A stretch of DNA of 64,000 nucleotides from an uncultured Nitrososphaerota archaeon (GTDB lineage Archaea > Thermoproteota > Nitrososphaeria > Nitrososphaerales > Gagatemarchaeaceae), in NCBI GenBank assembly GCA_963718895.1, contig CAVRAG010000003.1, positions 1-64,000 on the forward strand. Direction: 5' to 3'. Position numbers and translations under genes: made by a program. This document shows positions 21,608 to 22,299 of the stretch, piece by piece. The notes beneath the pieces were generated by a model. The model saw only the letters and a list, made by a program, of their open reading frames with translations. It had not been told where the DNA came from and did no database searches. Positions within the stretch are counted from its first letter, which is position 1. Every line of letters starts with the position of its first letter.

Positions 21608-21980
21608 TAGTAGTCCGCGGTTTCTCGAATCCGCCTTAAAGCGTTCGCTCGTGCCGGTCGGCGTCTTGATCCGGTCCAGCTCCAGACGACCGATCCGCGC
21701 TCAGGTTCCTTTGAATGAGAAGAACGCAGGTCTGGCGTCTATGTAGACGGAGGCTGCGTGAGCCGGCGGAACAAATCAGCGCTTCATATCAGAATTCTCC
21801 GTTCGAAGTCATGGCCGGACCTATATCAGGCGGCGAGGTTGCTATTCCATCCATATTCGAGCACGGTCACTTGGAAAGTTCTATCGAGATGTCGGTCTGA
21901 CGATACAGAGGAAGAGGATTCGATCGGAAGCCAAACTCAAATCATAATCGACACGACCCTGGCTCTCGCTAAGCGGCTCG

Positions 21981-22131
21981 CGCCGGGGGTAGGATTTTCG
22001 CCCGAGTCTTCTCGGGATTCGAACCCACGAGACCCGGATGGGTCACAGGCTGTCTTTGGCCAACTCAAGGCCCGCGCATTACTGTGGACGCGAATTGACC
22101 ACTCTGCTCTCAGGCACTGGTGAACCCCGGC
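21981..22131 (-). tRNA. tRNA-Ser(UGA) with four introns (22109-22123, 22082-22096, 22052-22063, 21995-22017)
   Basis: Spliced sequence GCCGGGG TA GCAGAGTGGTCTAATGC G CGGGC CTTGAGA GCCTG TGACCCATCCGGGTCT C GTGGG TTCGAAT CCTAC CCCCGGC G: full type II cloverleaf, G73 discriminator, no encoded CCA; BHB/BHL motif at each junction. Confidence 0.9.
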
Positions 22132-22299
22132 ATTCCCCGGCACCATCGGACTATCTCTTCCCCTTGATAAGGGCTTAAGATGCGGTCCCCGCTCGAGTTG
22201 AACTTCCATCGCGATGTTGGTACCTGCGATGCTGCGGAAGAAGGCTGCTACATAACAAAAAGACTGAAGCCGTAAGATGCTCAACATCTTCGCTCCTTC

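Follow-up and report, generated by a model that had tools for sequence, protein, structure and literature searches.

A copy of the acceptor 5′ strand in the leader of an archaeal tRNA-Ser(UGA) gene accompanies the 8/9 intron and may free the real strand for splicing

The tRNA gene described here lies on the minus strand (22131-21981) of the window, the whole 64,000-nucleotide stretch of DNA that was analysed, which comes from a soil archaeon. Downstream, the same strand carries a gene for an Nramp-family transporter; upstream, the other strand carries one for a 3-hydroxyacyl-CoA dehydrogenase. In the unspliced window, no tRNA was called at this position by ARAGORN or by Rfam, and in-silico removal of four segments gave a sequence that ARAGORN identified as an 86-nt class II tRNA-Ser(UGA) with discriminator G. 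The four intervening sequences could be identified because the same gene in congeneric relatives has fewer insertions. They are BHB introns at 8/9, in the D-loop, at 37/38 and at 59/60 (Table 1), and this gene is the only one among 19 genus-level homologues that contains all four together. The BHB of the 37/38 intron is relaxed, with three of its four central pairs present by eye, and the BHB of the 59/60 intron was present in the minimum-energy fold of the precursor (ViennaRNA). In the parts of PMC4033280 and PMC8450103 available to us, the maximum number of introns in an archaeal tRNA gene is given as three, so the four introns of this gene are notable.

A BLAST search with a 241-nt stretch showed one copy of tRNA-Ser(UGA) in the archaeon's own genome, whose completeness is 80.5%. 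The same genome contains two ORFs with the tRNA-intron endonuclease domain PF01974 (open frames of 196 and 182 aa, 91 and 86 bits), a pair that would be expected for a broad-specificity EndA heterotetramer, together with RtcB detected by PF01139 (564 bits) and an archaeal RNase P RNA (185 bits). Most of its tRNA genes have at least one non-canonical intron; one example is the tRNA-His gene at C4:197230-197332 (minus strand), in which a 30-nt D-loop intron partially repeats exon 1. ARAGORN with its intron option missed many of these genes and reported spurious introns of hundreds to thousands of bases. According to the available part of PMC8450103, tRNAscan-SE 2.0 adds 60 nt of flanking sequence to find introns near the gene ends.

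Next to the tRNA gene, a small basic ORF at about 21765-21947 (plus strand) converges on it and stops about 34 nt past the tRNA 3′ end, with a C-terminus of ...GKFYRDVGLTIQRKRIRSEAKLKS. It is conserved in L002, L003, L004, L158, L160 and L162 by tblastx, and the ORF listing contains no ORF of at least 50 aa in its frame.

Table 1. Features of the tRNA-Ser(UGA) gene and its leader, in the direction of the minus strand
Feature	Position	Strand	Basis or remark
AT-rich box TCTTAAG	22174..22180	minus	starts 39 nt before the copy; partly conserved in homologues
TATA-like box CTTATCAA, likelier promoter element	22164..22171	minus	function predicted from archaeal promoter geometry
Leader GGT 5′ of the copy	22142..22144	minus	T·G73 and G:C74 would lengthen the helix to 9 bp
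Leader copy GCCGGGG, putative spare acceptor 5′ strand	22135..22141	minus	identical to nt 1-7; predicted pairing with 21988-21982, probability about 1.0
Spacer AAT between copy and G1	22132..22134	minus	sequence and length variable in homologues
Exon 1: nt 1-7 GCCGGGG (22131-22125) and U8 (22124)	22124..22131	minus	intron-less homologues; ARAGORN on spliced sequence
8/9 intron, 15 nt, TCACCAGTGCCTGAG	22109..22123	minus	missing in L006, L008 and others
Exon 2: nt 9 to D-loop, AGCAGAGTGGTC	22097..22108	minus	homologue comparison; ARAGORN on spliced sequence
D-loop intron, 15 nt, GTGG-TC/A ... CCAC-AG/T	22082..22096	minus	indel against L005, L007, L009
Exon 3 to nt 37, anticodon UGA	22064..22081	minus	ARAGORN on spliced sequence
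Canonical 37/38 intron, 12 nt	22052..22063	minus	indel against L002, L009, L155 and others
Exon 4: nt 38 to 59, long variable arm included	22018..22051	minus	ARAGORN on spliced sequence
59/60 T-loop intron, 23 nt, TTCG-AA/T CCCGAG..CTCGGG CGAA-AA/T	21995..22017	minus	in the genus set only in L001 and L002/L158
Exon 5: T-stem 3′ side, 3′ acceptor strand CCCCGGC (21988-21982), discriminator G (21981)	21981..21994	minus	
First trailer bases CG	21979..21980	minus	C 21980 able to pair with leader G 22143

Upstream of G1, the minus strand reads GGT-GCCGGGG (22144-22135), AAT, GCCGGGG (22131-22125) and T8, which confirms the second copy of tRNA nt 1-7 reported by a first-pass annotation of this DNA. 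The 9-bp complementarity with one G·U pair that it described was also found, between the leader segment GTGCCGGGG (22143-22135) and CCCCGGCGC (21988-21980), which covers the 3′ acceptor strand, the discriminator G and a trailer C. The pair between leader G 22143 and C74 is G:C in 18 of 19 genus-level sequences; C74 alone is uninformative because it is also kept in homologues without the 8/9 intron. In all 35 same-register alignment rows, a T or C precedes the copy and can pair with G73 (UG in 26, CG in 9). A change from T to C just before the copy in L003 and L004 improves the pair with G73 and breaks an alternative pairing with the intron.

The whole genome was scanned for exact 7-mer direct repeats (gap 0-12) with a downstream complement and a T-loop motif, and the sole tRNA-like match was this gene. 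None of the approximately 36 other tRNA genes of the genome, many of which have several non-canonical introns, contains an 8/9 intron. A tRNA-Leu-like gene at G000:C8 ~1579323 (plus strand), which has no 8/9 intron, carries a near copy (GTCGGGG, compared with GCCGGGG) 7 nt before G1, with G·U pairing possible; this could be a chance match, as one in about 37 genes.

Archaeal promoter boxes are centred about 26-27 nt before the transcription start. The TATA-like CTTAAG box named by the first-pass annotation is present, at 22179-22174 and not at 22173-22178. It is probably not the one in use, and CTTATCAA is the likelier TATA element; with either box, the copy is predicted to be inside the RNA, as had been proposed. 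In this gene and all f1 homologues examined, exactly 22 nt separate the copy from the end of a box of the type CTTATCAA, CTTATCAG or CTTATGAA. In 36 other tRNA genes of the own genome, the AT-rich peak is located 36-27 nt before G1, and boxes of the TCTTAA type begin 32-36 nt before G1 in 6 of the 36. In f9, a TATATATA box ends 21-22 nt before the leader complement, and in f7 and f27, boxes of the ATTTTAAG and GGTTTAA types end 26-38 nt before the copy. From this geometry, the predicted start for f1 and f9 is at the copy or a few bases upstream of it; for f7 and f27 it is 4-16 nt upstream. With the TCTTAAG box (22180-22174), transcription would begin about 10 nt before the copy. With a start at or just before the copy, the GGT extension may be outside the RNA, which would leave a 7-bp helix and make the copy the extreme 5′ end of the transcript. 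The leader block GAGATAGTCC (22145-22160, minus strand), which separates the CTTATCAA box from the copy, shows fair conservation within the genus, with TAGTCC nearly invariant, and resembles GATAATAGTG in L015 and ATAGGTAGATGT in L023.

The 8/9 splice motif was evaluated against the published BHB definition, as restated in the available text of bioRxiv 10.64898/2026.10.13.758758. In agreement with the earlier description, the 8/9 BHB uses acceptor nt 1-6: the central helix pairs C3-G6 with intron CCUG, and the outer helix consists of G1:C11 and C2:G10. The intron side of the central helix is CCUG here and CCCG in many relatives, and a small hairpin lies inside the intron. In 39 sequences, the central 4-bp helix (exon -6 to -3 with intron n-5 to n-2) was 100% paired, with C3:G, G4·U or G4:C, G5:C and G6:C, and the six core BHB pairs are possible in 40 of 40 distinct homologues. 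From the helix positions, 3-nt bulges are predicted on opposite strands, G7 U8/N and N N/A9 (G9 in other families). G1:C11 and C2:G10 of the outer helix h are present in 39 of 39 sequences, and in 27 of the 39, A12 also pairs with the base preceding G1. The outer helix h′ is weaker, with C:G in 19 of 19 and the next two pairs in 14 and 11 of the 19. Judged from sequence, the 8/9 intron fits the archaeal hBHBh′ class by its helices and bulges, by the canonical tRNA that remains after its removal, and by the EndA and ligase genes of the same genome. As the motif needs nt 1-6 and the 5′ side of the D-stem, it is incompatible with the acceptor stem.

The genomes of 401 relatives were searched, which gave 35 matches compared with one for a reversed control. 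Six of the 35 were not tRNAs (L223-L225 and L232-L234), and the remaining 29 were tRNA-Ser genes with an 8/9 intron from five families: 13 genomes in f1 (the own genome included), nine in f7, four in f9, two in f27 and one in f2. The leader duplication co-occurs with the intron in these relatives, as the first-pass annotation would lead one to expect: a leader complement of at least 8 bp was present in 29 of 29 genomes (28 of 28 without one unpublished f7 genome, G475, locus L204) and in 15 of 15 metagenome loci. In all 29 genomes, the leader segment pairs over 8-13 bp with the 3′ acceptor strand and G73. The leader contains an exact 7-nt copy in 24 of them, GCTGGGA in one (6/7 identical, pairing via G·U) and GGCGCCGG in the four of f9. 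This f9 segment is shifted in register by 2 and pairs with CCGGCGCC, which comprises nt 68-72, G73 and two trailer bases. The 15 loci on metagenome contigs all have GGTGCCGGGG, a spacer of 3-4 nt and then GCCGGGGT. The exact 7-nt copy occurs in 44 of the 50 parsed loci with an 8/9 intron. A search with a 16-letter pattern was unspecific, since at least 120 loci matched and one of the 120 listed was real; this was L092, a homologous locus in a public MAG with the same sequence as L009.

In the 19 distinct genus-level homologues, the copy is invariant, and every spacer column and 11 of 14 upstream leader columns are variable. The copy is retained while the spacer spans 3-26 nt and the intron 13-42 nt, with unrelated sequences. 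Variants of the acceptor are mirrored by the copy, with GCCGGGG accompanying C66 and GCCGGGA accompanying U66, and both combinations are found inside f7. For copy position 7 and position 66 in alignment A2, the 35 same-register rows comprise 28 with G:C and 7 with A:U and contain no mismatch; the four f9 rows have G·U at this place and pair in the other register. The compared sequences are related, and the G7/A7 signal represents few independent changes, at least one of them within f7. Covariation over the whole structure was not above shuffled controls, in which the observed percentage of paired positions was reached by 80 of 500 and 116 of 500 shuffles, because most of the pairs never vary. 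The longer helices of 12-13 bp (L007, L153, L154 and L156) were considered as compensatory and rejected, as their pair counts showed no excess over shuffles; extension of the helix past 10 bp was likewise not above chance by a rough estimate. The 20-26 nt spacers of the f7 loci L201, L202 and L205 share AAGGC..AGC...GTGCTT, and from sequence comparison a separate conserved element may be present in these long spacers.

Serine tRNA genes without the 8/9 intron were also analyzed. In 27 such genes parsed from 30 loci, the longest helix between the leader and the 3′ end was 3-6 bp in 24, 7 bp in one (L242) and 9 bp in two (L241 and L260). The 14 homologues without the intron from the first search included one exact copy, in the tRNA-Ser(UGA) gene L015 (G033), which reads GCCGGGA CC GCCGGGA. 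In the tRNA-Ser(CGA) gene L241 (G484), an exact GTGCCGGGG copy lies 10 nt upstream; the orthologues of this gene, L237 and L250, have no copy. The copies in L015 and L241 could result from intron loss, from gene conversion or from a copy that predates the intron. As these two genes carry the copy alone, it is not strictly tied to the 8/9 intron. Among the loci examined, the intron never occurred without the leader complement, and the complement occurred occasionally without the intron.

For other tRNAs, the pattern GGGCCSG N2-5 GGGCCSG T matched the 401 genomes about as often as its reversed control, and none of the 30 loci inspected out of 59 GGGCCSG-pattern matches was tRNA-like. In tRNA-His relatives, represented by 14 loci with a GTG anticodon loop, no intron was found near the 5′ end.

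The precursors of 40 distinct sequences were folded by ViennaRNA at 37 °C with and without the leader, and the values obtained are predictions. The leader helix had a median probability of 0.98 and a minimum of 0.64, and the probability of the real acceptor stem was 0.00 with the leader and 0.98 without it. The median ensemble cost of forcing the six BHB pairs was 3.9 kcal/mol with the leader, compared with 9.1 kcal/mol without it, and the cost was lower with the leader in 38 of 40 precursors, the exceptions being L204 and L207. Complementing the copy in silico raised the cost just as deleting the leader did (10.2 compared with 3.9 kcal/mol for the 19 genus-level sequences). In the folding model, the copy would thus free the 5′ strand, in line with the built-in folding aid suggested by the first-pass annotation. 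The exact BHB is not the dominant fold even with the leader (median probability 0.01, maximum 0.39), and in L001 the model prefers a register shifted by one base with the outer helix kept.

It had further been suggested that the strands are swapped back after splicing, and this was not predicted. When the 8/9 intron was removed in silico, the copy helix was still dominant (0.99), and when in addition the trailer was trimmed to the discriminator, the real stem reached a median of only 0.27. The nearest-neighbour model favours the copy helix also after splicing, so secondary-structure energies do not explain how the 3′ strand would go back to the real 5′ strand. We infer that the swap back would proceed via tertiary folding and irreversible RNase P cleavage of a minor conformer.

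The best explanation, and one that we consider probable, is that the leader carries a surrogate acceptor 5′ strand that frees the real strand for the 8/9 BHB. It draws on the anatomy, the conservation, the co-occurrence and the predicted energies described above; the copy would be transcribed, the steps would follow in the order given here, and the strands would finally swap back. In the primary transcript, the copy would pair with the 3′ acceptor strand over 7 bp, or up to 9 bp with G73 and C74, and this helix would keep the GC-rich real acceptor stem from forming. The freed nt 1-6 would then build the 8/9 BHB, C3-G6 with intron CCUG, and G1 and C2 with C11 and G10. The splicing endonuclease would cut, and RtcB would ligate U8 to A9. 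After removal of the intron, the real 5′ strand would retake the 3′ strand, and RNase P would cut irreversibly at G1, by which the copy would be removed.

The copy might instead be an evolutionary relic, a mark of the ancestral 5′ end or of an old local duplication that came about together with the intron, and play no part in RNA folding. The distance from the copy to the AT box equals that from G1 to the box in ordinary tRNA genes of the own genome, what precedes the copy here looks like the leader of L023, which lacks the intron and has ATAGGTAGATGT ahead of G1, copies without the intron stand in L015 and L241, and the covariation controls were not significant. However, a neutral 7-mer would not stay intact in 40 distinct sequences of five families amid the turnover of flanks, spacer and intron length, and it would not track the G7/A7 change of the acceptor. 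In f9, moreover, a different segment still forms 8-9 bp with the 3′ end, and we regard a relic as unlikely. A recent tandem duplication is not indicated, because, judged by eye, the sequence upstream of the copy does not recur in the spacers. The helix between the leader and the 3′ end could also be functional for another purpose, such as protection of the 3′ end, blocking of premature RNase P, RNase Z or aminoacylation, or timing of the processing of several introns. This would account for the leader complement in the few genes without the 8/9 intron (L015, L241 and L260) and for a helix that is predicted to outlast 8/9 splicing. It fits less well with a helix present in 29 of 29 intron-bearing genomes and reaching at least 8 bp in only 2 of 27 controls, with the lack of a copy in the other multi-intron tRNA genes of the own genome, and with an energy effect that hits exactly the strand needed by the BHB; such a purpose is improbable in our view.

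If the copy were outside the RNA, between the TATA box and the start, it would act, if at all, as DNA, either as an initiator or as the initially melted region. The box positions in f7 and f27, 26-38 nt before the copy, place the copy well within the transcript. In f1 and f9, 20-22 nt separate the end of the AT-rich box from the segment, so that the start is predicted at the segment's first base, and the pyrimidine that always precedes the copy is initiator-like. A promoter element would nevertheless have no reason to mirror the acceptor strand, to track G7/A7 or to keep the shifted-register complementarity of f9, which makes a role as DNA quite improbable. The upstream copy could also be read as the true exon 1, with the spacer and the proximal GCCGGGG as part of a larger or additional intron, since the duplicated CCGG cores could pair and mimic a small BHB and the copy could equally form the central helix of the 8/9 BHB. 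Against this, T8 follows only the proximal strand in all sequences examined; the base after the copy is A in 13 of 19 genus-level sequences, and other loci have unrelated spacers at this point. Joining at the copy would yield a tRNA that either lacks U8 or has A8, and the intron-less homologues read GCCGGGG-T-A/G-GCAG. The outer helix would be poor and is lost by eye in L003, L004 and L163, and the helix between the copy and the 3′ end is predicted at about 1.0; this reading of the exon boundary is therefore very improbable. Two other candidates were tried and rejected, a C/D-box reading of leader GATGG and intron CTGA, which is not conserved by eye, and removal of the leader by EndA via a spacer BHB, for which 2-3 bp and not 4 are available between the spacer and the 3′ bulge.

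An intron directly behind the acceptor stem poses a folding problem, since one strand is required both by the splice motif and by the tRNA's most stable helix; the leader copy points to a simple solution that the transcript itself would carry. If a surrogate strand in the leader is indeed used, tRNA gene finders and intron censuses should count the leader as a functional part of the gene. It would explain where non-canonical introns persist and would predict an obligatory order of splicing and end maturation. As only one tRNA-Ser(UGA) gene was found in this genome, which is 80.5% complete, the mechanism would be essential for reading UCA codons. We tentatively propose that surrogate acceptor strands in the leaders of archaeal pre-tRNAs form a general class of cis-acting folding helpers that has so far not been described. 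They would license BHB introns at positions of about 1 to 9, where the motif borrows the acceptor 5′ strand, require splicing to precede RNase P cleavage, and account for the gain and retention of intron positions that would otherwise be forbidden. L015 and L241 hint that a leader copy may arise first by chance and then permit the gain of an intron.

A leader element that replaces the real 5′ strand on the 3′ acceptor strand is not described in the available parts of PMC4090602, PMC4033280 and PMC8450103, and among the titles and abstracts returned by our literature search, none reports an acceptor-strand copy in a leader. The word "leader" is absent from the main text of bioRxiv 10.64898/2026.10.13.758758, whose supplements may list introns of the acceptor region. 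The 8/9 intron shares its hBHBh′ anatomy with the non-canonical and multiple BHB introns of archaea (Thermoproteales and Thaumarchaeota), as described in the accessible parts of PMC4090602, PMC4033280 and PMC8450103. As in the split and permuted tRNA genes of Nanoarchaeum equitans, Caldivirga and Thermofilum (PMC3218864, PMC3978253), leader and trailer sequences outside the mature tRNA would pair with one another and make the precursor spliceable. In those genes, unlike here, a leader:trailer helix carries the BHB and is cut by EndA; the helix in the present gene mimics the acceptor stem, and its removal by RNase P is proposed. The helix between the leader and the 3′ strand is continuous over 8-13 bp without bulges and ends at a single-stranded spacer of 3-26 nt, which is a junction and not a BHB. 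In attenuators and riboswitches, a strand can pair with either of two partners but not with both, and the choice between them depends on a third segment (sequester and anti-sequester). By analogy, the logic of alternative pairing proposed for the leader copy would be similar to theirs. Unlike in these systems, no ligand and no control of transcription would be involved, and the switch would run on the removal of the intron and the cut by RNase P.
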